Shown here: one piece after another, positions 9,225-63,563 of the stretch
Layout: every line of letters begins with the position of its first letter
Position numbering within the stretch: the first letter of the stretch is position 1
Assembly: GCA_027451965.1 (NCBI GenBank)
Contig: DAIDHJ010000001.1
Coordinates: 23,639 to 87,638, forward strand
DNA from: Candidatus Adlerbacteria bacterium
GTDB lineage: Bacteria > Patescibacteriota > Minisyncoccia > Phycocordibacterales > SBAW01
Length of the DNA stretch: 64,000 nucleotides
Direction of reading: 5' to 3'
Translations under genes and position numbers: made by a program
The notes under the pieces: generated by a model
Told to the model about the DNA's origin: nothing
What the model saw: the letters and a program-made list of their open reading frames with translations, nothing else
The model's database searches: none

Positions 9225-10687
<1,463 letters not shown>

Positions 10688-30709: not shown

Positions 30710-30828
30710 ACTCTGGCGGCTAGCTACTCTCCCCCACAAGGAGTACCATCGCCGCTGGTGAGCTTAACTTCCGTGTTCGGAATGAGAACGGGTGTTTCCC
30801 CACCGCCAAACCACCAGAGTAGAATTTC
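30710..30828 (-). rRNA. rrf: 5S rRNA
   Basis: Reverse complement reads TCTGGTGGTTTGGCGGTGGGGAAACACCCGTTCTCATTCCGAACACGGAAGTTAAGCTCACCAGCGGCGATGGTACTCC...GCCGCCAGAG. Helix I pairs. Confidence 0.9.
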
Positions 30829-30862: not shown

Positions 30863-34136
<3,274 letters not shown>

Positions 34137-34444
34137 GTTTCTCTCTCATTTGCAGAGAAAGAAGCTTAAGAACCGCAATAATTTGTTGTTGTGTATGTTT
34201 TCTTACCTACCCATTTCCATACCCCGCAAGACCCACCTGAGCAAGATATGTAATGGCATGTAATTTTCAAAGGACGGGGTGCTGTTAGAAATGAAAAAGC
34301 CGCTTCGTTTGCAGAAGCGGCGCTTCAGTAAGCATGATGCTTACCGTCTCCGCTTCGTTGGCTTCTTCGTAAGTAACATACCCTGTGACAGAGAGTATAC
34401 GGGAGTGCACAGGTCGTGTCAAATTCACCTCTCTATCCCATACA

Positions 34445-40900: not shown

Positions 40901-41450
40901 TGAAGGTGGTAAACGGAACGCGAGACGCAAGCTTAGGAGCAACTGAATTTGCTGGCTGAGCAGCAACAGATACTACTGCAGTACCTGCAGCGGTTCCTGT
41001 CGTGGTCGTGCCAGTGCCAGTGCTACCGCCAGTTGTTGAACCGGAGGTCGTACCTGCGCACAGTGCATTTGCTTCTGCGCGAGATGATGGACCCCAGTAG
41101 CCTGATGCAACAGAAAGTCCGACTGGAGCAAGCACGTTAGAAGCGTACTTGGTCTGGAACTTCTTGATTGCCGCGGTCGTGAGCGGTCCGAGGTACGTAG
41201 TCTCATTTCCTGGAGATCCTGCACCTACGGAAGCGACCATCGTGTCCGGACTGGAGTTCAAGAACTGCTGAAGCTGCATGACTGCTGTTCCGGTAGAACC
41301 TTTCTTAAGGTTCATTGAGAACGTGGTGCCTGGGCAGATAGATGCTGCGTGTGCTGGAGCAACAGAAACTGTTGCGAACACAAATGCAGCAAGCGCTACG
41401 ACACCAAAGGTCAAGGCAGCAAGCCCTGTAGAACGATTGGTTAATGTCAT
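37989..41450 (-). CDS. large secreted cell-surface protein: signal peptide, PG_binding_1-like domain, Thr/Gly-rich linker, ~1000 aa of repetitive beta-rich Ser/Thr/Gly/Val modules
   Basis: N-terminus: hydrophobic signal with AHA-AS cleavage site. Peptidoglycan-binding motif: LKKGSTGTAVMQLQQFL...LGPLTTAAIKKFQ. The rest is low-complexity repeats. Confidence 0.7.
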   Translation of the reverse strand: MTLTNRSTGLAALTFGVVALAAFVFATVSVAPAHAASICPGTTFSMNLKKGSTGTAVMQLQQFLNSSPDTMVASVGAGSPGNETTYLGPLTTAAIKKFQTKYASNVLAPVGLSVASGYWGPSSRAEANALCAGTTSGSTTGGSTGTGTTTTGTAAGTAVVSVAAQPANSVAPKLASRVPFTTFTVTANGAPVTLNSVSIVRQGPSLDTDFSGVELINVATGQQMGISHVFDANHSATIGQPITIPAGTSMTFQVAGNIASSVGSGDVASIAVTAINTSSSVSGSLPITGASVTMNNTLTIGTNTVSFSSFDPRSSSSQPIGTSGYRFSAIRLQAGSAEDQTLKSITWYQSGSASGVSNVVTVVNGTSYPTTVDATGRYYTSTFPSGIVIPKGQSLDLYVQGDLSSNTNANSTAEFDIYRATDIYLVGNTYGYGITPTATGSGTYSTTNNANSGFQASSNPFYFGATVTVTAGSISTFQNATSVAAQNIGVNVLNQPLGGFQTNLTGESITAQSVTVHFHSSASISPLTNVSLVNQNGSVIAGPYNATCNAGATCTDESVTFTGAINFPTGAATYTLQGEVPSGTAGGITIQASTTPSTDWSSVTGNTTGNTISLPSNTVTMNTMTVQAATLNATNGTTPVSQNVVAGGSNVVFATVSLDASQSGEDIRLSSIPLDLTFSGTNGQLNLSACQIYNGSTALNTGTRVINGSNINTTSGGKTNFSLDNSLVIPKGTILSLNLQCSVSSSATGTYQWGVDSTAGDWSVSGSVSGSSVTPTFTGVGTAPTMTISSGATLAASIDPSSPSYTLVAGGTTGALLNVIKLHAANEPVNLQKIALSLTTATASSSAADLSNVYLYAGNNVYTTGGAAVAPGTLLGTMQFPSGSTVATSTLSTVVQLPNNQDAQILVKGDIAAVGSFQPATEGDLVAVDLKDAQGVGANSGTTIYSTGTTASSGVRVFHSVPTVALGSGLTSNGVSDGHLIRFSISAGSQNPIGINQLVFGVATTSATVSNVNLYAYTDSGYSQPVPGFASGVLNSSALSVLGATGSQKVTVVVNNGTGPLEIPAGGTYYFSLVGTVAGSGTTYNVSTTLNGDAAYPTGLTSGNMGTVSQVNGSNFVWSPNATTTTVTTVSDWTNGYGVAGLPSVGITQNRTN

Positions 41451-49960: not shown

Positions 49961-51391
49961 TTACTCTTTTCGAGGAAACAGCGTTGGAGGTTTTTTATTT
50001 TCGCGCAGCGCCTTCTGCATGATTTCAGCAGTAGCGGGCATAAAAGGCATGAGCATGACAGCAATCCCCTGCAGTCGTATCACTACGTCCCGGATGAGCG
50101 CCTTTCCTTTTTCGGAATCCTCTTTCACGACCCGAAACGGCTCCTGTTCGGTTATAGCCTGATTCAGGCCGGCAATTTCTGTAAAAATAATTTCCATTGC
50201 ACGGTTAATATCCAAAGCAGCAAATGCTTCTCGAAAGGAAACTGGCATTTCTTCCTGAGAGGAAATTGGTTGCGATAGATGTGCTTCTGAAAGAGTCATG
50301 ATACGGCTTACCAAATTACCCAGTCCGTTTGCCAGATGCGCATTGTATGCATCTTTGAATGCCTCTCGTGTCATGTCACCGTCCTCAAACAGCGCGATGT
50401 GACGTGCTAGAAAATATCGCACGGCATCGGTGCCATATTCCGAGAGCAGTTCCTGCGGATCAATGACGTTGCCGAGCGTCTTGGACATTTTTTTTCCGCC
50501 CGAGGTGATAAATCCATGTACGAGGAGTGTCTGAGGTAGCGGCAACTCTGCAGAAAGAAGCATTGCCGGCCAGATAGCGGCGTGAAAGCGAAGAATATCT
50601 TTTCCCAGCACCTGCACTGCTGCGGGCCAGAAGAGGTCATACAGCGTTGAATCGGTACCGTACCCAAGTGCCGTAAGGTAATTGGAGAGTGCATCGCACC
50701 ATACATACATGACTTGCGACGGATCTTCCGGAATCGGTACGCCCAGACCCTTCGGCCAATCTGCGCGACGAGGACGCGAAAAACTTACATCTTCAAGTCC
50801 GCGATCGATAAATGCGAGAATTTCATGCTTGCGCGAAGCAGGGATGATATGTAGACGGTCGGAGACGATCGCTTCGCGCAGGGCATCTCCATATCGCGAA
50901 AGACGGAAAAAGTAATTTCGTTCTTTCAGGTGTTCCGGCTTCAAGTTATGATCAGGACATACCCCATCTACAAGATCTTTCTCGGTGATGAATGCCTCAT
51001 GTCCTGTGCAATAGAGACCTTCATACTCTTTTTCATACAGATCTCCGGCGGCAGCAAGCCGCCGCCACAGTTCCTGCGCGCCTGGCCAATGCCGCTTTTG
51101 ATCAGTGGTGCGAATAAACTGATCACATGAGATATTGAGCGTTCCGTACAATCCATGAAACTGCGCGACAATCTCTTCTAGAAACTGAAGCGGTTCTTTA
51201 CCGGCGCTGCGCGCCGCATCGACCATTTTTTGCGTATTTTCGTCGGAACCCGAAAGAAAATATACCGATTCGCCGAGCTGTCGGTGATATCGAGCAATAA
51301 TGTCGGCGACAGTAGTGGTATAGGCATGCCCCATATGGAGCTTCGCGTTGGGATAAAAAATAGGAGTAGTGATGTAAAAGCCTTTTGCCAT
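49961..51391 (-). CDS. metG: methionine--tRNA ligase (short form, no C-terminal tRNA-binding domain)
   Basis: HIGH-type motif HMGHAY and KMSKT. Confidence 0.9.
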   Translation of the reverse strand: MAKGFYITTPIFYPNAKLHMGHAYTTTVADIIARYHRQLGESVYFLSGSDENTQKMVDAARSAGKEPLQFLEEIVAQFHGLYGTLNISCDQFIRTTDQKRHWPGAQELWRRLAAAGDLYEKEYEGLYCTGHEAFITEKDLVDGVCPDHNLKPEHLKERNYFFRLSRYGDALREAIVSDRLHIIPASRKHEILAFIDRGLEDVSFSRPRRADWPKGLGVPIPEDPSQVMYVWCDALSNYLTALGYGTDSTLYDLFWPAAVQVLGKDILRFHAAIWPAMLLSAELPLPQTLLVHGFITSGGKKMSKTLGNVIDPQELLSEYGTDAVRYFLARHIALFEDGDMTREAFKDAYNAHLANGLGNLVSRIMTLSEAHLSQPISSQEEMPVSFREAFAALDINRAMEIIFTEIAGLNQAITEQEPFRVVKEDSEKGKALIRDVVIRLQGIAVMLMPFMPATAEIMQKALRENKKPPTLFPRKE

Positions 51392-51405
51392 GAATGAAAG
51401 CGGTT

Positions 51406-52470
51406 TCAGGATACCTCGTGCTTGGCGTTTTCCAGACGCGCAAGCGAGCGCCGCTTTTCACTATCCACGTCGCTGATAAATTCTTGTATGGCGGTAGCAA
51501 TCGGTACTGCAAGAAGCGCCCCTAAGAAACCGGCCAGCTTAAATCCTATAAGCATTGAGAGAATAACGAGAATCGGCGGCACACCAACCACTTTCTTTAC
51601 CACCACTGGATAAATGAGATGCGCTTCAAACTGCTGCACGATAAGGTATAGACCGGTCACTACTAGGCCAGTAGTCACTCCTCCGGTAGTAAATCCGATG
51701 ACAATGGCCGGCACCGCAGCCAGATATTGGCCGAATACCGGAATGAGTTCGAATACCGCCGCTACTACGGCAAGCAGCAATGCATACTGCACACCGATGA
51801 TGAGTAAGCCGAGATAAAGGAGTATGCCGACGAGCACAGCGAGCACTAACTGCCCTTGCATCCATTTTCCTATTTTTTCCTGGGAGCGTTTCCACAGATT
51901 GAGCACGTACGGCTGCTTATCAACCGGCGTAACAATGCGCAGAAAATTCTCTACACCCGTATCCTGCACTGAAAAATAAAATGACAGGATCAGTATCAGG
52001 AAGAATGAAGTGAGACCGCCGAAGAATGCTGAAAGCGCCGCAAGCGCGCTGCCGCTTGAGGTGGCAATACCGCCAGAAATGCTGTTAAGCAGATCCGCAG
52101 AAGAAAGCGCACTATTTCCTAGAGGAATCAGTCCGTGAGTGAATTCGGTGATATTGAATGACCCTAAGACGCCGGGAAGCTGACGAAGAAATGTTGCCGT
52201 GTCATTCAGAAGCGGTGGAACAAAGAAAAATACCAATGCCAGTAAAATTGCCACTACTGTGAGATAGAGAATCACCACGCCGAGCACGCGACTAACATGA
52301 TGTCGTTGGAGAAATATGATTCCCGGTTCCAATGCTGATGCGATTACGATCGATGCAAGCACAATGAGCACCAAGTCTCGTATATACCAGACAAATACCA
52401 GTAATAAGATAAAAAGGAGTGCCGTAATGATGCTTCCGGAACTGACATGTACATGTACATCCTTATTCAT
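51406..52470 (-). CDS. AI-2E family transporter (UPF0118 permease)
   Basis: 354 aa, about 8 TM segments, typical family topology. Confidence 0.7.
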   Translation of the reverse strand: MNKDVHVHVSSGSIITALLFILLLVFVWYIRDLVLIVLASIVIASALEPGIIFLQRHHVSRVLGVVILYLTVVAILLALVFFFVPPLLNDTATFLRQLPGVLGSFNITEFTHGLIPLGNSALSSADLLNSISGGIATSSGSALAALSAFFGGLTSFFLILILSFYFSVQDTGVENFLRIVTPVDKQPYVLNLWKRSQEKIGKWMQGQLVLAVLVGILLYLGLLIIGVQYALLLAVVAAVFELIPVFGQYLAAVPAIVIGFTTGGVTTGLVVTGLYLIVQQFEAHLIYPVVVKKVVGVPPILVILSMLIGFKLAGFLGALLAVPIATAIQEFISDVDSEKRRSLARLENAKHEVS

Positions 52471-52479
52471 ATATCTATG

Positions 52480-53862
52480 TTATACCGCAAGCTTCTCGCG
52501 CAACAAGGAAAGTAGCTCTTCGAGGGATACGCGTTCTTGGGAAGCGCTATCCCTATCCCGGAGAGTAACCGTATTGTCTGCAAGCGTGTCAAAATCGATA
52601 GTGATGCACCAGGGCGTGCCGATCTCATCTTGGCGCCGATAGCGCTTCCCAATGTTTCCGTTATCGTCCCACATGACATGGTAGAGTTCCGGTTTAAGCA
52701 TGCGATACACCGCCTTCGCTTTTTCCACCAGCTCTGGCTTGTTTTTAAGCAAAGGAAACACGGCAACTTTTATCGGAGAGAGGTGTGGCGGAAATCGTAG
52801 ATAGGTTCTCGCTTCCCCGCCCACGGTATCAGTGGTATACGCCTTCGTAATAACGGCGAGCAGATGCCGCCCAAGCCCGAATGTCGGTTCAAGCACATGC
52901 GGCAGAAGTTTTTCGTTTGAAACAGGATCGGTATAGTGAAGTTCAACGCCGCTATGCGTCATATGGCTGCGAAGATCAAAATCAGTACGGTACGCCAATC
53001 CGGCAATTTCTTTAAACCCCATCGGATAGCGGAAATAAAAATCGAGCGTACGTTTTGAGTAATGGGCACGTTCCTGCGCCGGCACTTCCACTTCTTTAAT
53101 ATCGTCCTTAGCAAATCCCAGTAATGCGAACCATGCGTGCATTTCTGTTTGCCAGTAGGAAAAGAGTTCTTGCCATTGCGATTCAGGCATAAAATACTCG
53201 AGTTCCATGATTTCAAGTTCTCGCACGCGAAATATAAAATCGCGCGGAGCAATTTCGTTCCGGAACGCCTTCCCGATCTGCGCGATACCGAACGGAAGTT
53301 TTGGATGATATGCATCGACGATATTCTTGAAATTCACAAACATCCCCTGCGCTGTTTCCGGGCGCAAGTATACCGTATGCTCATCTCCCTCTACGGGACC
53401 GATAGAGCTTCGGAACATCATATTGAACTGCTGTGGCTCCGTCAGTTCATTACCCTCAGGAGAGCGAATTCCTTTTTCCATAATCGTTTTTCCAATAGCT
53501 TCCAAGGACATACCCGAAGGATCGATGCCATGTTCTTCAAGCAGATGGTCTGCCCGATACCGCTTGTGTGTCTTCTTATCCTCCACTAACGGATCATGAA
53601 AGCCGCCGACATGACCGCTCGCTTCCCAGATTCGCTTATTCATGAGTATGGCGCTCTCTATGCCATACATATCGTCACGCCTGTCCACAAAGCGCCGCCA
53701 CCACGCCTCGGAGATATTATTTTTGAGCATGAGGCCGAGCGGTCCGTAGTCCCACGTACCAGCCAATCCGCCATATATTTCCGATCCTTGGAAGATAAAT
53801 CCTCGCCGTTTGCACAGCGATACAATAGCTTCCATGCTCTTTTCTTCCATATCGGCCATCAT
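52480..53862 (-). CDS. glyQS: glycine--tRNA ligase (class II, alpha2 type)
   Basis: FQGSEIYGGLAGTWDYGPLG and class II motifs. 460 aa. Confidence 0.9.
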   Translation of the reverse strand: MMADMEEKSMEAIVSLCKRRGFIFQGSEIYGGLAGTWDYGPLGLMLKNNISEAWWRRFVDRRDDMYGIESAILMNKRIWEASGHVGGFHDPLVEDKKTHKRYRADHLLEEHGIDPSGMSLEAIGKTIMEKGIRSPEGNELTEPQQFNMMFRSSIGPVEGDEHTVYLRPETAQGMFVNFKNIVDAYHPKLPFGIAQIGKAFRNEIAPRDFIFRVRELEIMELEYFMPESQWQELFSYWQTEMHAWFALLGFAKDDIKEVEVPAQERAHYSKRTLDFYFRYPMGFKEIAGLAYRTDFDLRSHMTHSGVELHYTDPVSNEKLLPHVLEPTFGLGRHLLAVITKAYTTDTVGGEARTYLRFPPHLSPIKVAVFPLLKNKPELVEKAKAVYRMLKPELYHVMWDDNGNIGKRYRRQDEIGTPWCITIDFDTLADNTVTLRDRDSASQERVSLEELLSLLREKLAV

Positions 53863-53892
53863 ACTCTGGATTGGATGTTTGAGAAAACACTA

Positions 53893-55839
53893 CTACCGGG
53901 AAACTACTTGCCCCATCTGAGCGGTATACCGTGAATCATTAGATAGTATGGTGGAAAGAGCATCTGCGGTTTCTTGCACATTCGTCTGTGTGAATTGATC
54001 CTGACCTACGAGCACGCTTTGCGTGGTAAGCGCGGGTGCGGTTCCCACTTGAGAAAGGCTCGGCGTAAGCGCCACTTGAAATGCTGCTTGCAGTGCGGCG
54101 CTGGAATATCCGGTACCGGCGGTTACCGTACGCACATTCCAGGTTACGGTACGGCTGCTGGCATCGTATGAGACATTTGATCCTGGTTGCGCGGCGACAA
54201 ATTGGACATACGGAGGCAATGTGGTGGTTACCATGACATTGGTGAGCGAATTCGAAGAATTCTTAATGGACCACAGCACCGTATAGGCTGTATTTTCTCC
54301 AACCACCGGTGGCATAGGTCCGGGATCGGAAAATGGACCGCTGAAATGCAGTGCCTGTGCAGTAAGAGTCACCAGAGAGGAAATAAGCACGTTTGCATTT
54401 GCTGCAGAAGATACCGTGCTGGGCACACTGGTCTGCCCCTCTGGAGTACCGTTGAGAGAAAGATTCAGGAATACTGAAGGATTTGTACTCCCTTTCGTGT
54501 TCGCTATAGAAAATGAGAACGGAAATGATCCAGTTCCTCCGGGAGGAATGGAAGCAAGCTGTGCATCCTCTTGCGAATCCCAGGTAATGGTTGAATTGGA
54601 GGACTGATAAAATCCATCCGGGGCGCTGACTGAACTTTTATCAAGCGCATCTCCGGTAAGGGATAGTTGGAGCGAAAGGTTTGATACGGCGGTAGACAGA
54701 TTGTTCGTCCAGGTGACAGTGCCGTTTACGGTGCTATTCGGGGCTACTGATACCGTACCCCCCGACTGCCCATTCAAAGCCAATAGTGCCTGTACAAAGG
54801 GCTGCTGCACCGTCAAGGTCTGCGGTACAGAAAGAAACGGTACAGCAACATGTACATCGGTTGGATTACTGTCAGACCCAACAAGGAAACGGAATACGCG
54901 CTCATCGCCGTTTTGTCCTTGAAGGGCGCCGACGATATGAATCGTTTTAATATCTCCCGGTTGCAGCGTGCCTAACCGCCAAATAGTTCCTCCAGCATCT
55001 CCCTGCGGAGTCGATGAAGCAATGGAAAATCCGAATGGATACTGAGCTTCTAACATGACATCTGGAATGGGCGTAGCTGCATTTGCCTGTACCGTGAGGT
55101 CCATGGAGAATGATTGTCCAGATATCGCTTGAGACGGTGCATTTACTGATACGGACACCGGAGATGATCCGACAAGAAAATTCACCGAAGCTTGTTTTTG
55201 AAATACTGCATTTGAACCGGGTACGCTATATTCAAGGGTCACATTTACTGTCTGCTGCATCCCTTGCTGTCCGTAAAAAATAGCGTTCAGCGTATTGTGT
55301 ATCTGTCCTCCTGAAGGGATGGTGCCGATGGTTTGCGTATCATGTTGGAGCGCCTGAGATGGATCACTGGCGCTGTGTGTGCCGTCCGGATAATCAATAA
55401 TGAGATCGGCGAGTGTCAGTGCCGTTTTGTTATGGTTATCGATAATGACCTGCAGCGTGGCGCTCTTTCCTCCTTCAACCACCGACGGAGCAACAATCTG
55501 CATATCAATGTTCTGTGAGGAGATGAAATTCGCACCGCCAAAAAAGAGATATGCCGCCGCTGCTGCTGCGCCGACGAAAAAGAGAATGGAGACAATAAGA
55601 AATTTGCCGGCAAACGACGCGCCCTTCCTCTTTTTCGATTCTGTAAATTGCGTGAGCGGAGGCGCTGTCGGCTCTGCCGTTTCCATTTCAGGAGATGTCT
55701 CCCAAGCATGCGGCACTTCTTCCTCAAATGGAGAGAGCGGCGTGCGGATATCATTTCCTACTGCCGGTTTTTGTGTACGCGAATAGAGTTCTTTTTTGAG
55801 CCGCTCAATAGCATCCTTATCGTCATGCCCCATGAGCAA
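53893..55839 (-). CDS. membrane-anchored surface protein: cytoplasmic N-terminus, one TM segment, ~500-aa Ser/Thr/Asn-rich repetitive beta-rich ectodomain
   Basis: 648 aa. TM segment is FLIVSILFFVGAAAAAAYLFF. The ectodomain is low-complexity (SVSVNAPS..., TVTW...). Confidence 0.6.
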   Translation of the reverse strand: MLMGHDDKDAIERLKKELYSRTQKPAVGNDIRTPLSPFEEEVPHAWETSPEMETAEPTAPPLTQFTESKKRKGASFAGKFLIVSILFFVGAAAAAAYLFFGGANFISSQNIDMQIVAPSVVEGGKSATLQVIIDNHNKTALTLADLIIDYPDGTHSASDPSQALQHDTQTIGTIPSGGQIHNTLNAIFYGQQGMQQTVNVTLEYSVPGSNAVFQKQASVNFLVGSSPVSVSVNAPSQAISGQSFSMDLTVQANAATPIPDVMLEAQYPFGFSIASSTPQGDAGGTIWRLGTLQPGDIKTIHIVGALQGQNGDERVFRFLVGSDSNPTDVHVAVPFLSVPQTLTVQQPFVQALLALNGQSGGTVSVAPNSTVNGTVTWTNNLSTAVSNLSLQLSLTGDALDKSSVSAPDGFYQSSNSTITWDSQEDAQLASIPPGGTGSFPFSFSIANTKGSTNPSVFLNLSLNGTPEGQTSVPSTVSSAANANVLISSLVTLTAQALHFSGPFSDPGPMPPVVGENTAYTVLWSIKNSSNSLTNVMVTTTLPPYVQFVAAQPGSNVSYDASSRTVTWNVRTVTAGTGYSSAALQAAFQVALTPSLSQVGTAPALTTQSVLVGQDQFTQTNVQETADALSTILSNDSRYTAQMGQVVSR

Positions 55840-55851
55840 AGTATATCGTAC

Positions 55852-56424
55852 TCACAAATCACTTGCCCGAAGCGATTCATTTATCATGCTGACAAGTAAC
55901 CGCCGCGACTGTTCGGCCTGTGAAAGAAGTCCGGTTGAAAAGGTGTTGTCCGTTAAGAACGGCAGCAGCGCGTCTGGCGGAGAAACATATCCCAAATGTG
56001 CAAGAATCCTCAGAACAAGGACCCATTCTACCGGAGCAAGTGTGGTGCGATCTGCAGAGGCAAGTGTACTGAGCCCTTGTTCCGCTGCTTCATATACCAA
56101 TGGAATCGGTTCTTGCCCTTGAATAAGGCGCAGCAGCAGCAGCACAATGCGGCCTGCTGCTGCTGTAGCAGATATATCTCCAGCAAACCCCGTGATCTGC
56201 TCTGCGCCGACCAAACGCCATTCGTGCTTTCCGCGCACGAATGCAAAGCGAGCTGTGGTAAGCGGTTCGACGCCGTAACGGAGCTTTGATCGTTCAAGAC
56301 GAACGCTACGTGCATGCACCCGCAAGAGACCGTATTCTTCGGTAAGGATAGTGACAATGCTGTGCGACTCTCCCACTGGATATTTTTTCAATACAATCCC
56401 CCGGCTAGTCGCGATGTTATACAT
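55852..56424 (-). CDS. recO: DNA repair protein RecO
   Basis: Start at MYNIATSRGIVLKKYPVGESH (N-terminal OB fold). The ORF-track extension overlaps ileS. Confidence 0.75.
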   Translation of the reverse strand: MYNIATSRGIVLKKYPVGESHSIVTILTEEYGLLRVHARSVRLERSKLRYGVEPLTTARFAFVRGKHEWRLVGAEQITGFAGDISATAAAGRIVLLLLRLIQGQEPIPLVYEAAEQGLSTLASADRTTLAPVEWVLVLRILAHLGYVSPPDALLPFLTDNTFSTGLLSQAEQSRRLLVSMINESLRASDL

Positions 56425-59400
56425 GAGAAATCGTGCAGGTGATCGGAAAAGGAAATTCCGGATGCATGTCTCCTCCTTCTTCAAGGATGAGTGCTGCCAG
56501 ACCTGTCTCTGCGATAACGTTTTCTCGAACCGCTTCAAGAAATGCTTTCCCTTCTTCGTTTGTGGCGACAGAAAGCTCGGGACGATCCGTAATCGTCAGT
56601 CCTTCTTTCTTGCGCAAATCCTGCACAGTCCGGATCATGTCCCGCAACCATCCTTCCCGCTTGAGCTCTGGCGTGAGGATGGTATCAAGCAATACTTCTT
56701 CTGCTTGCGAAGGATTTTCTTTTACTGTTTTTACATTCACCTCTTCAGCAAGAATGGCGTGCAAACGAGCATCTGCAGGAAGGGTGCGAGCACTCAAAGA
56801 TGCAAGAGGTTGGCGCACTTTTATTCCCGATCGCTCTCGCAGTTCAAGCCCACGAGAAGCAAGCGTGCGTATGTGTGCCATAGCCTCGAGAAGCGGTTGA
56901 TCTGAAGGAAGTCCTGTCGGCCACTGGGAAAGATGCACGCTTTCCGGATCAGCATCTTGTTTCACTTGTTGAAACAGATATTCGGCAAAGAAGGGCATGA
57001 CGGGAGCGATGATATGGGAAAGGGTGTAGAGGACATACCGCATGGTAGCAAACGCTGTATGGTCGTTCTTTTTAAAGCGATCTCGAGAACGTCGCAGATA
57101 CCATGTCGAAAGATCATCAATAAACAGTGCTAGAGGACGCACCGCAAGATCAAGTTGGTATGTTTCAAATCCTTGTGTCGTTTCTGCCAGCAATGCACCT
57201 AAACGGGACAGTATCCACTGATCCAGAGGGTGCGCACTGCTGGCACTGCGTGTTACGCCGACATGTTCTCCGGCATACATTGCATAAAATGAGTGGACAT
57301 TATCGAGGCGCATGAGCAGCTTTTTTGAAACCTCTTCTACGCCACGCGTGGAAAACCGGAGATCTTCTCCGCGAACTACCGGCGAAGCGAGCATGTAATA
57401 GCGCATGGCATCCACACCGTACTGTTCTATGACATCGAGTGGATCAGGATAATTTTTGAGTCGTTTGCTCATTTTTTGCCCGTCTTCCGCAAGGATGAGC
57501 CCGTTTACAATCACATGCTTATACGGAGCTCGATTGAACAATGCACTTCCGAGCACCATGAGGGAATAGAACCATCCTCTTGTCTGATCGAGACCCTCAG
57601 CAATGAAATCGGCAGGGTATCTCAGTGGCGCTAATCCAAACAGTCGTTTCGGATTAAATCTTCCGCGTACGAATGGATAGTGATTGCTGGCAAACGGCAT
57701 GGATCCTGATTCAAACCAACAATCAAATACGTCTGGAATGCGTTTCCAGTGCCCTTGTATGGCATCTCCCAAAGGAATGTCATCTATATACGGACGATGC
57801 AGATCCAATTCAAATAATGCATTGTGCGGAAATGCTACAAAGGAAAGTTCCTTCCATTCTCCTACCTCTGGATACCATGCACGCCGCATCGTTTTCTCTT
57901 CTTCGATTGAAATACGATTACTGATGTCATACATGAGCCATGCAGGATCGCCGTGCGTAATACACAAAATATTTTTTCCGGTATATCGCCGCTCTACATC
58001 AAATAGAAATTCACCGACACGCTGCCGCACCGCAGGATACGTTTCCATTCCTTCTGGCACACGTGCAGAGTCAAAATGATCTGCATGAGAAAATGCCTTT
58101 CTCCATTCCTCGATAGGTTTTCCATTGAACGGTCCGCTTTGTAATTCTGTTAGGCGTTCATCTACCATCACTGCCGCATCAGGAAGCCCGAGCACTGTTT
58201 GCACAATACGCGCAGTTTCTTGCGCACGCGCAAGCGGCGACGTGACAATATAATCAATACGCATCTGCGAGCGCAGTGATTGGGCTTGCTGTTGAACACG
58301 TTCCTTGCCCTGCTGGGTAACATGATCAGGAATTCGATCATCACAATGCAATATCCCGGAAACATTGTGATCTGCTTCTCCGTGACGCATCACTATATAG
58401 CGATTACCCGAACGGCGTATCAAGGAAAGGAGTTCAGCAACTGATCCGATAACACGCACTGCTTTTGTTTTGGTATTCCGCCATACCGGAATCGGCGCTC
58501 CCCAGTACCTGCTTCGAGATATTGCCCAATCAGGCGCTCCTGCAATACCTTTATGGAAGCGATTCTTTCCTACATATTCCGGCACCCAGGTGACTTTGCT
58601 GTTTTCCTTAAGCAATTTTGTTTTGAGTGCAGCTACTTTTACAAACCAGGAATGTGCCGCCCAATTAAGAAGCGGGGTATCGCATCGCCAGCAGTGAGGA
58701 TAGCTGTGTTTTATTTTTTCTTGTGCAAACAGCAGATGCTGTGCTTCTAAGTAGGAAACGATTTTTTGATCCGTTTCCATATGCCTTCCTTTCGGTTTCA
58801 CTGGAAGATTGGCAAAATCGATCACCTCTTGCGTAAATTTCCCTTCTTCAGTGACATGGTGGATAAGCGGAATTTTTTCCTTCTGCGCAAGCAGCAGATC
58901 TTCTTCGCCAAATGCAGGGGCCAGATGCACAATGCCGGTACCATCTTCGTCCGTTACATACGGAGCGGCATACACCTTGAACGCATGCGTTTTATGCTTA
59001 TGAAGCGTGTCTATAAAGTATGGAAACGGCGGCTGATAACGTTTTCCCAGGAGCTGTTTTGGTTCAATCGAACTCACAATAGTTGCAGTATCTCCGAACA
59101 CCGACGAAACCCGGTTGCGTGCGAGAATAAAGTACTCATTTTCTCGCTCCACTTTGACGTATGCGAGAGAAGGGTTGATTGCAGCGGCAGAATTTGCCGG
59201 AAGCGTCCAGGGTGTCGTTGTCCAAATAAGCAACGAGGTACGCTCCTCATCAAGGAGTGGCAGTTTTACGGTAACTGCAATGTCTTCTATCTCCTTGTAG
59301 CCGAGAGCAACTTCAAAATTAGCGAGCGTGGTCCCGCATCGGGGACAGAGGTGAAGCGCTTTAAATCCTTCATATATCAAGCCTTGTTCAAACAAATTTT

Positions 59401-59923
59401 TGAATGCCCACCATACGCTTTCCGTGTAAGACGGATCCATAGTGCGATAATCCTCTTCCATGTCGACCCATCTGCCGATGCGCGGTATGATGCGCTTCCA
59501 ATCGGCAACATCCTTCATGATGCTTTTGCGCGCGGTTTCATTGAATTGCGCAATGCCGAACTGCTCTATGTCCCGCTTTGATTTGAATCCTAATTCCTTC
59601 TCTACCAGATTCTCTACAGGAAGACCGTGACAGTCCCACCCCCAACGGCGCGCGACATGATAGCCTCGCATAGTGCGATAGCGCGGAATAGCATCCTTTA
59701 TAGTGGAGGCGAGAATGTGACCATAGTGCGGTAAACCATTGGCAAAGGGCGGTCCATCATAAAAGACGAATGATCCTTTTGGAGCAGGCTTCGTAAGCGA
59801 TTTTTCAAAAATATGCTCTTGCTGCCAAAACGCTAGCGTCTGTTCTTCTCGTTGTGCAAATACGCTTTTTGGTTTTGGAATAGTATGATGCAGCTCTTCG
59901 CCTCCTTGCTGACGGTCGTCCAT
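56417..59923 (-). CDS. ileS: isoleucine--tRNA ligase (type 2, KMSKR) carrying an inserted histidine-phosphatase (PGAM-like) domain
   Basis: HYGH, TTPWTLP editing motif, DWAISRSRYWGAPIP, DVFDCWFESGSMP, KMSKRLKNYPDP. The inserted ~199 aa (57806..58402) carry RHGEADHN, SPLARAQETA and CITHGD. Confidence 0.9.
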   Translation of the reverse strand: MDDRQQGGEELHHTIPKPKSVFAQREEQTLAFWQQEHIFEKSLTKPAPKGSFVFYDGPPFANGLPHYGHILASTIKDAIPRYRTMRGYHVARRWGWDCHGLPVENLVEKELGFKSKRDIEQFGIAQFNETARKSIMKDVADWKRIIPRIGRWVDMEEDYRTMDPSYTESVWWAFKNLFEQGLIYEGFKALHLCPRCGTTLANFEVALGYKEIEDIAVTVKLPLLDEERTSLLIWTTTPWTLPANSAAAINPSLAYVKVERENEYFILARNRVSSVFGDTATIVSSIEPKQLLGKRYQPPFPYFIDTLHKHKTHAFKVYAAPYVTDEDGTGIVHLAPAFGEEDLLLAQKEKIPLIHHVTEEGKFTQEVIDFANLPVKPKGRHMETDQKIVSYLEAQHLLFAQEKIKHSYPHCWRCDTPLLNWAAHSWFVKVAALKTKLLKENSKVTWVPEYVGKNRFHKGIAGAPDWAISRSRYWGAPIPVWRNTKTKAVRVIGSVAELLSLIRRSGNRYIVMRHGEADHNVSGILHCDDRIPDHVTQQGKERVQQQAQSLRSQMRIDYIVTSPLARAQETARIVQTVLGLPDAAVMVDERLTELQSGPFNGKPIEEWRKAFSHADHFDSARVPEGMETYPAVRQRVGEFLFDVERRYTGKNILCITHGDPAWLMYDISNRISIEEEKTMRRAWYPEVGEWKELSFVAFPHNALFELDLHRPYIDDIPLGDAIQGHWKRIPDVFDCWFESGSMPFASNHYPFVRGRFNPKRLFGLAPLRYPADFIAEGLDQTRGWFYSLMVLGSALFNRAPYKHVIVNGLILAEDGQKMSKRLKNYPDPLDVIEQYGVDAMRYYMLASPVVRGEDLRFSTRGVEEVSKKLLMRLDNVHSFYAMYAGEHVGVTRSASSAHPLDQWILSRLGALLAETTQGFETYQLDLAVRPLALFIDDLSTWYLRRSRDRFKKNDHTAFATMRYVLYTLSHIIAPVMPFFAEYLFQQVKQDADPESVHLSQWPTGLPSDQPLLEAMAHIRTLASRGLELRERSGIKVRQPLASLSARTLPADARLHAILAEEVNVKTVKENPSQAEEVLLDTILTPELKREGWLRDMIRTVQDLRKKEGLTITDRPELSVATNEEGKAFLEAVRENVIAETGLAALILEEGGDMHPEFPFPITCTISHV

Positions 59924-59963
59924 ATCAAAAAACTATACCTTGAAGGCACCTTTTCTTCCATTC

Positions 59964-61628
59964 TTACATTTGTTCAGGAGCAGACATCCCAAGTAAAAAT
60001 AAACCCTGGCGAAGTACTGATTCAACCGCGGATACCAACAGTAATCCATACGAAGGATATATTCCTCCCACAACTCGTTCATGGGCATACCAGGAATTAA
60101 ATACGCCCGCTAATTCAGTGAGATATGTCGTGATGTAATGCGGTTCAAGCTCTTGCGCCGCGCGTTCCACCACTTCTGGGAAGTGCACCAGTGTTCGCTC
60201 TAGGATACCCAGTTCTTCTGGAATATCGGTAATACCAGCCTGTATACCAGCCTTCTGAGCCGTGCGAATAAGAGAGAGTGCCCGCGTGTGCGCATACTGC
60301 ACATAGGGCCCAGAATCTCCTTCCAGTGAAAGGGATTTTTCTGGATCGAACACCATATCCTTGCCGCTGTGCTGTTTGAGGATGGCATACTTTACCGCCC
60401 CTACTGCTACTTCCTCTGCCACTTGCTCCTGCGGAATGTCACGACCGGTCATTTTTGCTTTTGCCGCTTCCTGTAGATCGTGCAGCAATGATTCTCCCGT
60501 AATGACGTTTCCTTTTCGGGAAGACATTTTTCCAGATGCAAAACGCATCATCCCATGGGCTCGATGTATGTATTTCCCGGCAACATCGTGAAAAATGGCC
60601 TGGGCCGCAGTAAGGACAACCTTGAAGTAATCAGTTTGCTCGGACGCAGTGACGGTGATGGAAACATCAAATGCACAGCGTTCTCGCTTGAGTTCAATGA
60701 GACCTAGATCTTTCGCTTCGTAGGTGGGCAATCCGTGCGAATTGATGAAAACGCGGGTATGCAATCCATACGGTTCTCCTCGAAATACGATGGCTCCCTC
60801 GCTGAATTCAAATACCTCCGGATGCGCTCGCACAATGTCTATACCCCTTGGCCCTGTTTCGCTTTCAAAGAAATACAGATCAAATTTCGTGCCGAGTATA
60901 CGGTACAGCTCTTCAAAATGCTCAAGTGAGATTCGTTTCCCCCATGCATACAGTTCGTTTACCTGTGGATCGCTGTGCTCATAAATCTTTTTATTAAGAG
61001 CATCGATTGCTTCTTTATCAGCCTGATGCTCCTCATAGAGCTGGTTTCCTTTTACATATGCCTCCCCTATTTCCGCAATAGACGGTTTTAGGTTCTGTTG
61101 CTGTAGCAGAACGTATAGAGCCTTCGCCACATGCGGCCCAACATCCCCTTGATAATTAGCGCGGATGACTTGCGCGCTCGCATACGTCAATACTCGGGTG
61201 ATGCTTTCTCCGAGCGTATTACTCATGAGATGGCCGATATGAAACGGTTTGAACGGATTAGGCTGGGTATATTCCACCAGTACTCTTTTCCCCTGATAGT
61301 AGGCGCTGTGTGCCCAGGTTTTCTCTCCAGCCGCTTGCTCCACCTCACGTAGCAAAGCAGCATTAGAAAGAAAGAAGTTGATGAATCCGTTCCCCGCAAC
61401 TACTATCTCACGCACTCCTTCTATATGTTGTGCACAAAGAGCGTCACAGAGCTCTTGCGCAATGTCTTTCGGATTTTTATGCAATAGTGATGCTGCAATC
61501 AGTGCTGCATTGGTCGCATAATCCCCATGTGTAGCTTGTCCAGGACGTTCAAGCGTAAAAGAAACATGCTCTGCGGCAAGCGATGTAAGCGCTGTAGTAA
61601 TTGCTTGTGTAATAGCAGAACGGATCAT
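59964..61628 (-). CDS. argS: arginine--tRNA ligase
   Basis: PNPFKPFHIGH HIGH motif. 554 aa. C-terminal DALR anticodon-binding region. Confidence 0.9.
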   Translation of the reverse strand: MIRSAITQAITTALTSLAAEHVSFTLERPGQATHGDYATNAALIAASLLHKNPKDIAQELCDALCAQHIEGVREIVVAGNGFINFFLSNAALLREVEQAAGEKTWAHSAYYQGKRVLVEYTQPNPFKPFHIGHLMSNTLGESITRVLTYASAQVIRANYQGDVGPHVAKALYVLLQQQNLKPSIAEIGEAYVKGNQLYEEHQADKEAIDALNKKIYEHSDPQVNELYAWGKRISLEHFEELYRILGTKFDLYFFESETGPRGIDIVRAHPEVFEFSEGAIVFRGEPYGLHTRVFINSHGLPTYEAKDLGLIELKRERCAFDVSITVTASEQTDYFKVVLTAAQAIFHDVAGKYIHRAHGMMRFASGKMSSRKGNVITGESLLHDLQEAAKAKMTGRDIPQEQVAEEVAVGAVKYAILKQHSGKDMVFDPEKSLSLEGDSGPYVQYAHTRALSLIRTAQKAGIQAGITDIPEELGILERTLVHFPEVVERAAQELEPHYITTYLTELAGVFNSWYAHERVVGGIYPSYGLLLVSAVESVLRQGLFLLGMSAPEQM

Positions 61629-61666
61629 GGTGTTAGAGTATCAGCTTCAGAGATCCTCTCAAAGAG

Positions 61667-62935
61667 CTATGAAAAGCTGGTGGGTATGGGAAACTGGATA
61701 CATAGAGATCGTATCTGTTCCCGTATCGCCTGCAGTTTTGTTCTATCTTCTCTATACAAAAGAGCATCAAGCAGCAGATGGGCCACTTGTGCACTTTCTG
61801 TTTCCATAAATCCGCGAGTAGTGATTGCCGGAGTACCAAACCGAATACCCGACGGGTCGGTTGGCTTGCGCGGATCATCTGCAATCGCATTCATATTGAG
61901 CGTAATGCCTACCGTATCAAGCAGTTCTTGCGCTTCTTTTCCAGAGACGCCGAGCGAATGGAATATATCAGCCAGAATGAGATGATTACTGGTACCGCCT
62001 CCGATCATACGGATATTGCGTTCCCGAAGTACTCCCTCCATTGCTTTGGCATTCTTCAAGACTTGCTGCGCATATATTTTGAATTGCGGTTGCAGTGCTT
62101 CCCCGAATGCAACGGCTTTTGCAGCGATAACGTGCATGAGCGGCCCTCCTTGGAGTCCGGGGAACACCGCTTTGTCTATTTTTCGTGCAAGCTCCTCGTT
62201 GTCTCTCGTGAGAATGAGACCTCCTCGCGGACCCCGCAGCGTTTTATGTGTCGTTGAGGTCATCACATCAAATCCGTAGGTAAATGGATTTTTAGCCGCC
62301 CCCCCGGCGATCAATCCGGCGATATGCGCAACGTCAATAACCGCATATGCTCCTATTTCCCGAGCGATGGCAACAAACTTTTCATAATCCAATTCTCGTG
62401 AATATGCTGAGAATCCGGCAAGAATAATTTTTGGTCTGGTCTCATGAGCCACCTTGCGCATATCCTCGTAATCAATTTCTCCTGTATCCGGATTTTTCAT
62501 CTTGTAGCGAACAAAATGGAAAAAGTTGGTGATGTAGGTGACCGGATGTCCGTGCGTTAAATGGCCTCCATGGGAAAGATCCATACCTAGCACCGTATCT
62601 CCCGGGGAAAGCAACGCGAAGTACATGGCGACATTTGCGTTTGCTCCCGAATGCGGTTGTACGTTCGCGAACTGAGCGTCAAATAATTTTTTTGCCCGGT
62701 CTATAGCAATTGTTTCTATTTGATCAGTAAAGGCTTGGCCGCCATAGTATCGCTTCCCGGGATATCCTTCCGAATACTTATTCGTGAGAATAGATCCCTG
62801 CGCTTCACGCACTGCTTGTGAGACATAATTTTCAGAAGGAATCAGTTCAAGACCGTCTCGTTCTCGAATCTCTTCTCCTTCCATAGCAGCGTATACCGCG
62901 CTATCTTGCTTCCGTATTGAATCGTACATATCCAT
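61667..62935 (-). CDS. glyA: serine hydroxymethyltransferase
   Basis: LIPSENYVSQAV and the PLP-lysine region THKTLRGPRGG. Start at MDMYDS; the ORF-track extension overlaps tmk. Confidence 0.9.
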   Translation of the reverse strand: MDMYDSIRKQDSAVYAAMEGEEIRERDGLELIPSENYVSQAVREAQGSILTNKYSEGYPGKRYYGGQAFTDQIETIAIDRAKKLFDAQFANVQPHSGANANVAMYFALLSPGDTVLGMDLSHGGHLTHGHPVTYITNFFHFVRYKMKNPDTGEIDYEDMRKVAHETRPKIILAGFSAYSRELDYEKFVAIAREIGAYAVIDVAHIAGLIAGGAAKNPFTYGFDVMTSTTHKTLRGPRGGLILTRDNEELARKIDKAVFPGLQGGPLMHVIAAKAVAFGEALQPQFKIYAQQVLKNAKAMEGVLRERNIRMIGGGTSNHLILADIFHSLGVSGKEAQELLDTVGITLNMNAIADDPRKPTDPSGIRFGTPAITTRGFMETESAQVAHLLLDALLYREDRTKLQAIREQIRSLCIQFPIPTSFS

Positions 62936-62939
62936 ATCA

Positions 62940-63563
62940 CTATACAAGCAACGGAGCGACCGCCGCATACACGTCGTTCCACACCGCTTCGATTGAACGG
63001 TCAGTATCAATCACATGAGGTACGCCAAATTCTGCGACATGCTGCTTATACCCTTCGCGCACTCGTTCGTGAAATGTCACCGTTTCCTCATCAAATCGGG
63101 TAGTTTCTTCATGTCGTTGTCGGACACGTTGCAGACCAATACTTGGAGTGACGTCGAGCAAAATGCATATGTCCGGCGTGCAGGTATCTGTAACAAATGC
63201 GCTTACTTCTCGTAAAAATGGAAGGTAGTCATGCCGATTTCTTCCGTATATCTGATACGCAATCGTGGAAAGTCCAAATCGGTTAGTGATGACAGTTTTT
63301 CCTTCTGAAAGTGCTGGAGTAATAATCTGAGCGATGAGCTGCGCCCGTGCAGCTAAAAATAAGAGTAGCTCCGTCCGCACATCCATATCCGATATATCCT
63401 TTCCAAGAAGTAATGCGCGTATACGCTCCCCGATAACAGTACCTCCCGGTTCACGAGTGAAAACAGTATTTTGCGGATGAGTCAATTTCAGACGTTCAAT
63501 GATGGTATCTTTTCCCGATCCTTCGCCTCCCTCAAACACAATGAAACTGCCTCGTTTGTCCAT
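62940..63563 (-). CDS. tmk: thymidylate kinase
   Basis: P-loop FEGGEGSGKDT. 207 aa. Confidence 0.85.
   Translation of the reverse strand: MDKRGSFIVFEGGEGSGKDTIIERLKLTHPQNTVFTREPGGTVIGERIRALLLGKDISDMDVRTELLLFLAARAQLIAQIITPALSEGKTVITNRFGLSTIAYQIYGRNRHDYLPFLREVSAFVTDTCTPDICILLDVTPSIGLQRVRQRHEETTRFDEETVTFHERVREGYKQHVAEFGVPHVIDTDRSIEAVWNDVYAAVAPLLV

Follow-up and report, generated by a model that had tools for sequence, protein, structure and literature searches.

Does the isoleucyl-tRNA synthetase (IleRS) gene of this genome encode a complete second enzyme and, if so, what could that enzyme do within a synthetase? Few enzymes have been studied as thoroughly as the aminoacyl-tRNA synthetases (aaRSs), whose insertion modules serve to trace how the genetic code evolved. 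It is unusual for the catalytic domain of such an essential enzyme to harbour another, complete enzyme. The original prediction, derived from a 64,000-nucleotide stretch of DNA (the window), had proposed such a case, namely an IleRS with an embedded histidine phosphatase (His_Phos) domain.

Identity of the host synthetase and integrity of its gene

An ORF check yielded one uninterrupted frame on the minus strand (56417..59923), which starts with ATG, contains no N and codes for 1168 amino acids plus a stop. The protein scores 858.3 bits against the NCBIfam model TIGR00392 (ileS; cut-off 621.4) and thus lies above the curated equivalog threshold. It contains the HIGH and KMSKS signatures and aligns to 8C8V, a solved type-2 IleRS that served as the reference for determining the size of the insertion. 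The Pfam domain tRNA-synt_1 is split by the insert (first stretch aa 29-501); Anticodon_1 covers aa 901-1040 and DUF5915 aa 1075-1142. The overall IleRS fold, including the anticodon-binding and the C-terminal domains, is present, and so is the CP1 editing domain with its Thr-rich motif and the conserved His and Asp. In the alignment of IleRS homologues, the editing residues W234, T235, T236, T237, W239, H333 and D342 are invariant. These results show that the protein is, as predicted, an IleRS. It belongs to a Patescibacteria (CPR; Adlerbacteria/Paceibacteria-like) genome, its synthetic and editing motifs are all intact, and it is taken to be the housekeeping copy. The window also encodes an ArgRS, a MetRS and one class II aaRS, all of normal size.

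The nomenclature of the CP subdomains was taken from PMC7191050 and PMC7955072. CP3 is the name given in the literature to the subdomain between the GSxxEL helix and the DLH[KR]xxID motif. It usually comprises 25-77 residues, has no assigned function and, among IleRSs, is hypervariable by nature in both length and fold. The CP2-3 linker, located just upstream of CP3, lines the tRNA A76 pocket. The features of the gene are as follows.

56417..59923, minus strand: type-2 isoleucyl-tRNA synthetase with nested histidine phosphatase domain, complete ORF
58418..59923, minus strand: IleRS N-terminal portion, aa 1-502, with first Rossmann half, CP core, CP1 editing domain, CP2, CP2-3 linker and start of CP3, extending through GSVAELLSL (tRNA-synt_1 29-501; 8C8V residues 11-458)
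59717..59728, minus strand: HIGH signature HYGH, aa 66-69 (H66, G68 and H69 invariant in 69 homologues)
59204..59221, minus strand: Thr-rich motif TTTPWT of the editing site, aa 235-240 (conserved in the homologue alignment)
57806..58417, minus strand: histidine phosphatase (branch 1) insert, aa 503-706, in CP3 directly before DLHR (site A)
58379..58387, minus strand: RHG motif R513, H514, G515, with H514 as predicted phospho-accepting nucleophile (R513 and H514 in 100% of 289 domains)
58226..58228, minus strand: R566, second phosphate-binding Arg, SPLxR motif (S562 and R566 100% conserved)
58145..58147, minus strand: E593, predicted general acid (Glu in 95%, Asp in nearly all others; alignment with PhoE 1EBB)
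57953..57955, minus strand: H657, second catalytic His, ITHG motif (99.7% conserved)
56420..57805, minus strand: IleRS C-terminal portion, aa 707-1168, with the remaining CP3 (DLHRPYID), second Rossmann half, KMSKS region, anticodon-binding domain and DUF5915 (8C8V residues 483-905; Pfam)
57461..57475, minus strand: KMSKS signature KMSKR, aa 817-821 (K817, M818 and K820 invariant in 69 homologues)

The sequence is MAG-derived, which is the sole general ground for considering an assembly chimera, a frameshift-fused gene pair or a mis-binned contig. However, the frame is continuous and free of N, and the GC content of the insert (0.44-0.50) is the same as that of its flanks. Furthermore, NCBI holds an identical protein on a 548-kb contig, the same insert junctions recur in hundreds of independent assemblies, and the IleRS part, the insert and the junction are all confidently predicted in the AF2 model. 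The probability of an artefact is therefore negligible.

Extent, catalytic residues and family of the nested domain

Residues 482-703 of the query correspond to residues 458-483 of the 8C8V chain, which amounts to a net insertion of approximately 196 residues; insert-less IleRS relatives from CPR are 950-1000 residues long. The estimate of about 200 residues beyond a typical type-2 IleRS was thus accurate. All motifs named in the original prediction were found in their places: IGSVAEL (492-498), RHGEADHN (513-520), SPLARAQETA (562-571), ERLTEL (589-594), CITHGD (654-659), DLHRPYID (707-714) and DVFDCWFESGSMP (731-743). The nucleotides assigned to the extra segment, 57806..58402, encode aa 508-706. 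The alignment with 8C8V also agrees with the proposed insertion into a surface loop, which lies between the GSxxEL helix and DLH[KR]xxID and hence in CP3. Compared to the enzymes from T. thermophilus (1ILE) and Priestia megaterium (IleRS2, 8C8U/8C8V), CP3 of the query is enlarged by an enzyme domain of about 196 residues. The query lineage is devoid of the four zinc-knuckle cysteines of CP3, whereas about half of the insert-bearing relatives retain them.

The Pfam model His_Phos_1 (PF00300) matches aa 510-666 with E=3.3e-27 and 95.8 bits (cut-off 21.7), and the alpha/beta fold of the superfamily is present. When modelled alone, the insert reached a pLDDT of 96.9; together with the confident AF2 junction, this bears out the view of a self-contained domain. 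It is therefore practically certain that an autonomous branch-1 histidine phosphatase of about 200 residues is nested in CP3 of the IleRS.

The expected catalytic set of branch 1 (R513, H514, R566, E593 and H657) is intact. Its conservation was counted over 289 distinct insert domains, some of which are only about 30% identical. N520 is conserved in 94% of these domains, and the counterpart of E593 in the alignment with PhoE (1EBB) is the Glu of its RLREIHLG motif. Identity to the query is 46% for the insert as a whole vs 72-77% for the Rossmann core. Least conserved are the cap (aa 602-626) and the segments 523-535 and 661-690, which contain 1.1-1.4 bits vs 2.3-2.7 bits in the catalytic motifs. 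A near-invariant catalytic set within an otherwise drifting domain suggests that the active site is under selection, and on these grounds the insert is very probably catalytically active.

Alternatively, the insert could lack catalytic activity and serve as a structural or spacer module, i.e. an exapted fold that only replaces or enlarges CP3. The hypervariability of CP3 and its lack of an assigned function would be compatible with this role, as would the overall evolution of the insert, which is faster than that of the core. However, the catalytic set is near-invariant in the 289 domains and in the readable copies at all four insertion sites described below, while neighbouring positions drift. 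This is not expected of a spacer, which makes a silent module very improbable.

The insert had been termed PGAM-like. This holds for its superfamily membership only; the insert clearly falls short of the mutase equivalog models, and its nearest neighbours are phosphatases. Hallmarks of dPGMs are residues that bind a second phosphate or carboxylate and follow the catalytic Glu, plus a long mutase cap. This combination was not found in the insert, whose cap (602-626) is short and weakly conserved (1.3 bits). The scores stayed below the cut-offs of dPGM_arch (80.5-82.5 vs 225 bits), pgm_1 (18.4 vs 81.7) and GpmB (37-41 vs 261). The same is true for CobC (TIGR03162, 59-64 vs 162.9), PspA (NF045917, 44-48 vs 350) and SixA (TIGR00249, 39-42 vs 74.5). 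By these curated cut-offs, the insert is no equivalog of dPGM, CobC, PspA or SixA. The closest neighbours in sequence and structure are small-cap phosphatases of about 200 residues: PhoE (1H2E/1EBB), PspA (4IJ5), GpgP Rv2419c (4PZ9/6S2Q), CobC (6E4B/6NRU) and the riboflavin-pathway HFP (9MMH). Lower scores were obtained for mutases and for SixA, a capless protein phosphatase; in the structure comparison, mutases align with a worse rmsd and longer targets. The insert is only 19-25% identical to these small-cap phosphatases; it differs from them in failing all specific equivalog models and in being nested in an IleRS throughout the searches done.

Distribution and insertion sites in Patescibacteria

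The insert-bearing architecture was found in 61 of the 80 best GTDB loci, in all 120 nearest database homologues and in 193 distinct 50%-identity clusters (E<=1e-30). All these carriers are Patescibacteria. In a large clade of this group the insert is the norm and not a rarity. The architecture had been called non-standard; within its own lineage it is not unusual. The reservation that such inserts might be widespread and already annotated applies in part: they are widespread among Patescibacteria, and precomputed Pfam annotation lists PF00300. However, the source names do not go beyond "isoleucyl-tRNA synthetase" or "class I tRNA ligase family protein". Full-text literature searches gave no description of an IleRS-His_Phos fusion.

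For the classification of insertion sites, the sequences were mapped to a profile of insert-less IleRSs. In the relatives, His_Phos domains occupy four different sites (A-D), all of which lie in loops, either within the latter half of the catalytic core or in the region past KMSKS. Some proteins contain two domains, in the combinations A+B, B+C, C+D and A+D. Double domains that appeared to be in tandem are separate insertions at sites A and B, which flank the DLH motif. At all four sites, every copy with readable catalytic positions is intact. An apparent natural deletion of part of the domain in one locus (L064) was a run of 100 N.

A search of the available sequence for ValRS and LeuRS turned up MetRS genes only, and specificity was therefore gauged against MetRS. 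A His_Phos insert is absent from all 120 nearest homologues of MetRS in the same lineages. The insertion of His_Phos domains at four sites of the related IleRSs, catalytically intact in all readable copies and absent from these MetRSs, is new here. A nested phosphatase is conserved over a large radiation of uncultured bacteria, at four points of one protein.

In a crude NJ tree, insert-less IleRSs from CPR are interspersed among insert-bearing ones. No position of the IleRS core co-varies strongly with the presence of the insert; weak signals were seen only at the junction residue R710 and at A131. An exhaustive search of 1.84 billion proteins returned no close free-standing relative of the insert within its 150 best hits, and neither the window nor the flanks of the 80 loci contain a free-standing His_Phos gene. 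One candidate for a free-standing homologue (P0001; 186 residues, 42% identical) proved to be a piece of a frameshift-broken IleRS. Its contig keeps the SHMT-ArgRS-IleRS-RecO synteny.

Possible functions of the nested phosphatase

We infer a bifunctional protein that combines an IleRS with an active phosphomonoesterase, which would follow the standard chemistry of the superfamily. The phosphate of the substrate would be held by R513, R566, N520 and H657 and passed to H514. E593 would protonate the leaving group, and the phospho-histidine would then be hydrolysed.

Concerning the substrate, we favour a small molecule and no direct involvement in the IleRS reaction, with a confidence just short of even. 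The insert would be a phosphomonoesterase similar to PhoE, PspA, GpgP and CobC, probably of loose specificity, that rides on the IleRS as a compact fixed module without a direct role in aminoacylation. The type of phosphatase is suggested by the nearest neighbours, all of which are small-cap enzymes of about 200 residues. Loose specificity and a lack of RNA binding are suggested by the poorly conserved cap and segments and by a median net charge of -2 of the insert domains. The invariance of the HIGH, KMSKS and editing residues, the lack of strong co-variation and the interspersed insert-less enzymes indicate that the IleRS was not remodelled. Fixation on an essential, constitutively expressed IleRS would result in an obligatory 1:1 stoichiometry. 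The lineage would have kept the module on the IleRS specifically, and sites A-D would have arisen as it was copied or relocated inside this gene; retention and specificity are reflected in its frequency among loci, homologues and clusters vs its absence from MetRSs. An unrelated housekeeping phosphatase of this kind would represent a striking packaging of functions in extremely streamlined genomes, and the insert would also be useful as a marker of Patescibacteria lineages.

Several observations speak against this reading, since they agree poorly with mere hitch-hiking of the domain. They are the four sites and the double-domain combinations, with all readable copies catalytically intact, the lack of a close free-standing relative among the top 150 hits, the conserved junction residues, and the upstream CP2-3 linker that lines the A76 pocket. 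At the junction, N507 and P699 are each conserved in 84% of the domains, and R503, S505, G506, F695, H700 and N701 in at least 90% of the close set, which suggests a fixed docking geometry.

These same observations are consistent with a phosphatase that is mechanistically coupled to the IleRS cycle and has, in cis, a phosphorylated ligand or product of the IleRS as its substrate. Candidate substrates are a blocked end of tRNA-Ile (3'-phosphate, 5' or 2' phosphate), AMP, other NMPs and PPi, and the insert would add a third catalytic site to those for synthesis and editing. Within the available data, only IleRS carries the domain (120/120 vs 0/120 for MetRS), the four sites lie in loops around the second Rossmann half and the KMSKS/stem-contact region, and CP3 comes straight after the linker of the A76 pocket. 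Moreover, a weakly conserved cap would fit a substrate that is presented by the body of the IleRS and not recognised by the cap. On the other hand, the domain is mildly acidic and without an RNA-binding signature, core residues do not strongly co-vary with it, sister lineages without the insert exist, and no precedent was found in the literature for a member of the superfamily that acts on RNA ends. A single ancient insertion with later duplication inside the gene would also explain both the restriction to a single gene and the multiple sites. Coupling is therefore possible but rather unlikely. It is more doubtful still that a third site acting in cis on tRNA-Ile or an IleRS-bound nucleotide evolved repeatedly at four positions around the active site. 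Such a site may, for example, free the acceptor end of the tRNA from a blocking phosphate or clear a phosphorylated by-product. It would be a previously unknown repair or quality-control activity resident in an aaRS, and any coupling to aminoacylation would mean a new accessory activity of the synthetase.

Hip-type toxin kinases inactivate some aaRSs via phosphorylation. The insert could accordingly be a protein phosphatase or regulatory module, which dephosphorylates the IleRS or a partner, for example after inhibitory phosphorylation through a toxin-type kinase, or which senses a phosphorylated metabolite and tunes the activity of the IleRS. The superfamily includes protein phosphatases, SixA, PGAM5 and Sts are among the structural neighbours, and a macromolecular substrate would be in keeping with the variable cap. 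We consider this role improbable.

The architecture can be compared with known fusions. NCBIfam NF040702 (ileS_w_GNAT) is a curated precedent for an IleRS with an additional enzyme domain, for which a literature search gave nothing relevant. It carries a GNAT instead of a His_Phos domain, and the query is not a member (322 bits vs cut-off 1999). His_Phos_1 domains joined to an unrelated enzyme or a nucleic-acid-related protein occur in Rv2228c-type RNase H/acid phosphatase (NF005567; query 68-72 bits vs cut-off 326), PFK-2/FBPase-2 (1BIF) and TFIIIC tau55 (2YN0), and these domains turn up among the sequence or structure neighbours of the insert. In all three the His_Phos domain is a terminal fusion, whereas in the query it is nested within a loop of the catalytic domain of its host.

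The ileS gene and its nested histidine phosphatase domain

The domain under study is encoded within a single ORF:

56417-59923, minus strand: ileS, one unbroken frame that opens with ATG and encodes 1168 aa

All motifs listed in the original prediction were found in the translated ORF at the residues assigned to them. A frameshift or an assembly chimera, the concern raised there, is excluded because the GC content is even across the insert junctions and an identical protein exists on an NCBI record, on a 548-kb contig; the frame is continuous, and the ileS region of the window contains no N. The chance that the insert is an artefact is in our view negligible.

The Pfam family tRNA-synt_1 is split around the insert and followed downstream by Anticodon_1 (901-1040) and DUF5915 (1075-1142). 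The NCBIfam equivalog TIGR00392 (ileS) was passed with 858 bits (cut-off 621). HIGH, KMSKS, and the Thr-rich motif and His/Asp of the editing site show no variation among IleRS homologues, and the IleRS part appears to be without visible alteration. On the grounds of these intact motifs and of the conserved synteny, we take the query to be the organism's housekeeping IleRS rather than a specialised paralogue. When the core was scanned for positions separating insert-bearing from insert-less IleRSs, none stood out strongly; only two, A131 and the junction residue R710, weakly track the presence of the insert. Residue 131 (window approximately 59531-59533) is a Cys in 19 of 19 insert-less relatives and an Ala in 60% of the insert-bearing enzymes. 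Residue 710 (approximately 57794-57796), the last of the DLH-K/R motif, is an Arg in 84% of the insert-bearing and a Lys in 84% of the insert-less enzymes.

Residues 510-666 matched His_Phos_1 (PF00300) with E=3.3e-27 and 95.8 bits (gathering score 21.7), which places the extra segment in the histidine phosphatase family as proposed. In an AF2 model of the full-length protein (mean pLDDT 79, pTM 0.71), residues 490-700 fold into a confidently predicted alpha/beta domain (pLDDT by block mostly 84-97). Modelled alone, the insert reached a pLDDT of 96.9 and a pTM of 0.92; it is therefore an autonomous fold, which answers the earlier question of whether the domain is self-contained. A Foldseek search with the isolated insert yielded TM values of 0.70-0.75 at only 19-25% identity, with PhoE, PspA and CobC foremost; the same three were top-ranked in a PDB sequence search. 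The insert passed none of the specific NCBIfam equivalog models.

Scores of the insert for NCBIfam models (cut-off in brackets)
dPGM_arch: 80 bits (225)
Rv2228c-type acid phosphatase: 68-72 bits (326)
CobC: 59-64 bits (163)
PspA: 44-48 bits (350)
SixA: 39-42 bits (74.5)

The insert is therefore a bona fide member of the superfamily that falls into no characterised subfamily. The earlier label "PGAM-like" is correct for the superfamily but not in the sense of a mutase: the low dPGM_arch score and the nearest relatives mark the insert as phosphatase-type.

Aligned with 8C8V, the type-2 IleRS structure from Priestia megaterium, the query stretch 482-703 is matched by just 25 residues (458-483), a net insertion of approximately 196 aa. 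This confirmed the proposed surface-loop position, which by the nomenclature of solved eukaryote-type IleRSs is the CP3 subdomain. CP3 comprises residues 473-534 in the eukaryote-type Candida IleRS (PMC7191050) and 459-526 in yeast IleRS (PMC7955072). Its topology varies with the type of IleRS: Thermus has a zinc finger at this place, Staphylococcus three helices (PMC7191050). In a catalogue of aaRS insertion modules, CP3 is entered as a cysteine-rich zinc finger of 25-77 aa without assigned function (PMC10810186). The ARDWxxSRxRYWG linker directly upstream of CP3 lines the pocket for tRNA A76 and reveromycin (PMC7955072). Aligned with insert-less relatives, the junction is a clean cut-and-paste: '...VVGSxxELExLS/GxxIxDLHKxxVDxI...' becomes '...IGSVAELLSLIRRS[His_Phos]...PHNALFELDLHRPYIDDI...'. 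The four zinc-knuckle cysteines that flank the insert are all kept in approximately 55% of the insert-bearing enzymes and were lost in the lineage of the query.

Distribution and insertion sites

In a GTDB scan with one genome per species, a homologous insert was present in 61 of the best 80 IleRS loci. All 61 belong to Patescibacteria/CPR bins (Adlerbacteria, Taylorbacteria, Nomurabacteria, Paceibacterota and similar) or to a few bins whose labels are evidently wrong. The insert is absent from 19 loci, which originate from other CPR lineages (Nealsonbacteria, Moranbacteria, Peregrinibacteria and others) and from Lentisphaerae/Chlamydiae. Furthermore, PF00133, PF00300, PF08264 and PF19302 occur together in 120/120 nearest homologues from a database of 5.8 billion proteins, whose source names say no more than "isoleucyl-tRNA synthetase" or "class I tRNA ligase family protein". 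When 1.84 billion cluster representatives were searched exhaustively by HMMER, with the insert and short flanks as query, 193 clusters matched at E<=1e-30; of the 150 matches listed, nearly all cover the insert and both flanks. The judgement that this is not a standard architecture consequently needs revision within the clade, where the fusion is the norm and not the oddity of one genome.

Two apparent exceptions were discarded. P0001, a database protein that resembled a free-standing relative, is a fragment of a frameshifted IleRS gene with SHMT-ArgRS-IleRS-RecO synteny kept. In the related locus L064 (CAZTPW010000016.1), 100 consecutive N replace most of the phosphatase domain (approximately residue 440-476 of the IleRS ORF) and mimicked its deletion. 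Surveys of the insert based on length should therefore be read with caution.

In relatives of the query, His_Phos domains were also found at three further sites of IleRS. Sites were assigned by the landmarks WGxP, DLH[KR], DCWFESG and KMSK and independently by mapping to a profile of insert-less IleRSs, on which a further 41 domains, in fragments, were not placeable.

Insertion sites of His_Phos domains in IleRS
Site A: just before DLH, profile column 495; 165 domains placed, e.g. query
Site B: between DLH and DCWFESG, inside the second zinc knuckle, column 510; 4 domains, e.g. related loci L045 (508-692 aa) and L047 (504-690 aa)
Site C: after DCWFESG, before GxDQ/KMSKS, column 548; 3 domains, e.g. 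Peregrinibacteria enzyme MBT4937439.1
Site D: approximately 77 positions after KMSKS, before the anticodon-binding domain, column 676-677; 3 domains, e.g. homologous proteins P0210 and P0232

Several homologues carry two domains, namely at A and B (P0247, P0185, P0263, P0221), B and C (P0227), C and D (P0232) or A and D (P0210, P0223). The C and D form occurs in six independent assemblies, one of them a contig of 1.06 Mb. IleRSs with extra sites or double domains, among them P0264, reach lengths of up to 1419-1489 aa. The full catalytic set is kept in every copy whose catalytic positions are readable; for the first domain of P0221, the detected stretch begins too late to show R513, H514 and N520. 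Copies from the same site share 36-67% identity, those from different sites approximately 30-35%, even inside one protein. Stepwise intragenic duplication of the domain with a flank, followed by loss, would be consistent with the adjacent pairs AB, BC and CD; alternatively, the extra sites may stem from independent capture. In a crude NJ tree of the IleRS core, which carries no support values, the multi-site variants lie in one basal grade and insert-less CPR IleRSs are interspersed among insert-bearing ones. Such a pattern could result from one old gain followed by several losses, or from more than one gain.

Both parts of the protein are well-known families, and the fusion can be found in public databases, where Pfam tags were assigned to it automatically. 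It is thus widespread in CPR and annotated to this extent, the outcome against which the original prediction had been set; full-text literature searches found no paper that describes a histidine phosphatase nested in CP3 of IleRS. A curated precedent is the NCBIfam "IleRS with N-acetyltransferase domain", which the query fails (322 bits vs 1999). Other precedents are proteins in which His_Phos is joined to RNase H (Rv2228c type) or PFK-2, or lies within TFIIIC tau55; those three are known as terminal fusions, not as nested insertions. The nested domain is a genuine and ancient feature of IleRS, widespread among CPR bacteria, and the earlier interpretation stands with two corrections, its normality in the clade and its phosphatase type. 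For an aaRS specialist, the surprise would lie in a conserved, repeatedly re-positioned second enzyme within the catalytic domain.

Conservation and possible function of the insert

Conservation was computed over 289 distinct insert domains, some only approximately 30% identical.

Conservation of insert residues (query numbering)
R513, H514, S562, R566: 100%
H657: 99.7%
R635: 99%
E627: 98%
E593: Glu in 95%, remainder almost all Asp
N520: 94%

The catalytic motifs are the most constrained part, at 2.3-2.7 bits; conservation is loose, at 1.1-1.4 bits, in the cap (602-626), the 523-535 loop and the 661-690 segment. In close homologues, the whole insert is 46% identical to the query, the Rossmann halves 72-77%. 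The net charge of the insert domains is slightly negative (median -2). This pattern is characteristic of an active phosphatase that has neither a strongly conserved specificity pocket nor an RNA-binding surface.

By sequence, the query is a composite protein with two intact catalytic machineries. The insert would hydrolyse a phosphomonoester via a phospho-H514 intermediate, with E593 as the probable general acid. That so conserved a catalytic set serves a structural role only is highly improbable; a protein phosphatase or regulatory role appears improbable as well, if less so. With somewhat less than even confidence, we favour a small-molecule phosphatase of loose specificity that acts independently and has IleRS as its carrier. 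Evidence for it comes from the nearest relatives and the cap architecture, the autonomous fold, the acidic surface and the variable cap, and also from the IleRS core, which is not remodelled, and from the existence of insert-less sisters.

It is possible, if on balance unlikely, that selection acted instead on physical proximity of the insert to the IleRS reaction or to tRNA-Ile. The domain is restricted to IleRS when compared with the MetRS of the window: PF00300 occurs in 0/120 nearest MetRS homologues (476-491 aa, same lineages as the fused IleRSs) and in 120/120 for IleRS. Several of these MetRSs lie on contigs equal in length to those of fused IleRSs. The control covers MetRS; the closest structural cousins of IleRS are ValRS and LeuRS. 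Such a coupling would also agree with the four sites around the second half of the catalytic core, the double copies, the conserved junctions, the adjacency of the insert to the A76-pocket linker and the absence of close free-standing relatives from the search results. Neither the window nor the regions flanking the 80 loci contain a further His_Phos ORF. However, an unrelated passenger is at least as likely, and the independent phosphatase remains our preferred reading.

Gene neighbourhood and other features of the window

The ileS gene lies in an aaRS-rich string:

49961-63010, minus strand: SHMT, ArgRS, IleRS, RecO, a 648-aa DUF11 protein, a class II aaRS, an AI-2E transporter and MetRS

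The class II aaRS (460 aa) consists of tRNA-synt_2b and HGTP_anticodon; the other synthetases of the string are of normal size and contain no His_Phos domain. The RecO ORF as listed (55852-56538, minus strand, TTG start at 56538) would overlap the 3' end of ileS by 122 nt; since its Pfam match does not set in before residue 43, translation probably starts further downstream. The order SHMT-ArgRS-IleRS-RecO is also found in the related metagenomic contig L081. There, two proteins are encoded at 3937-6022, between ArgRS and a frameshift-broken IleRS-His_Phos gene: one of 419 aa that weakly matches the IS605 OrfB HTH, and a solo Cas1 of 254 aa. This may reflect a mobile-element insertion beside ileS or an error-rich assembly.

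Further features were noted elsewhere in the window:

6588-8762, minus strand: 724-aa protein with two tandem GT4-type glycosyltransferase modules (Glycos_transf_1 x2, Glyco_trans_4 x2)
8808-8991, minus strand: tRNA-Ile(GAU) and tRNA-Leu(CAG), which come after the 16S gene
9225-10687, minus strand: 16S rRNA
30711-30818, minus strand: 5S rRNA
30873-34145, minus strand: 23S rRNA match, 3273 nt vs a 2925-position model
37989-41450, minus strand: 1153-aa ORF, large uncharacterised protein with no Pfam match at E<=1e-5

The rRNA genes are unlinked, with the 16S gene approximately 20 kb from the 23S-5S pair. The extra 23S sequence (approximately 350 nt) is possibly a CPR-type rRNA insertion or an intron. 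The 724-aa glycosyltransferase protein is another fused or duplicated enzyme of the small genome that carries the ileS fusion.
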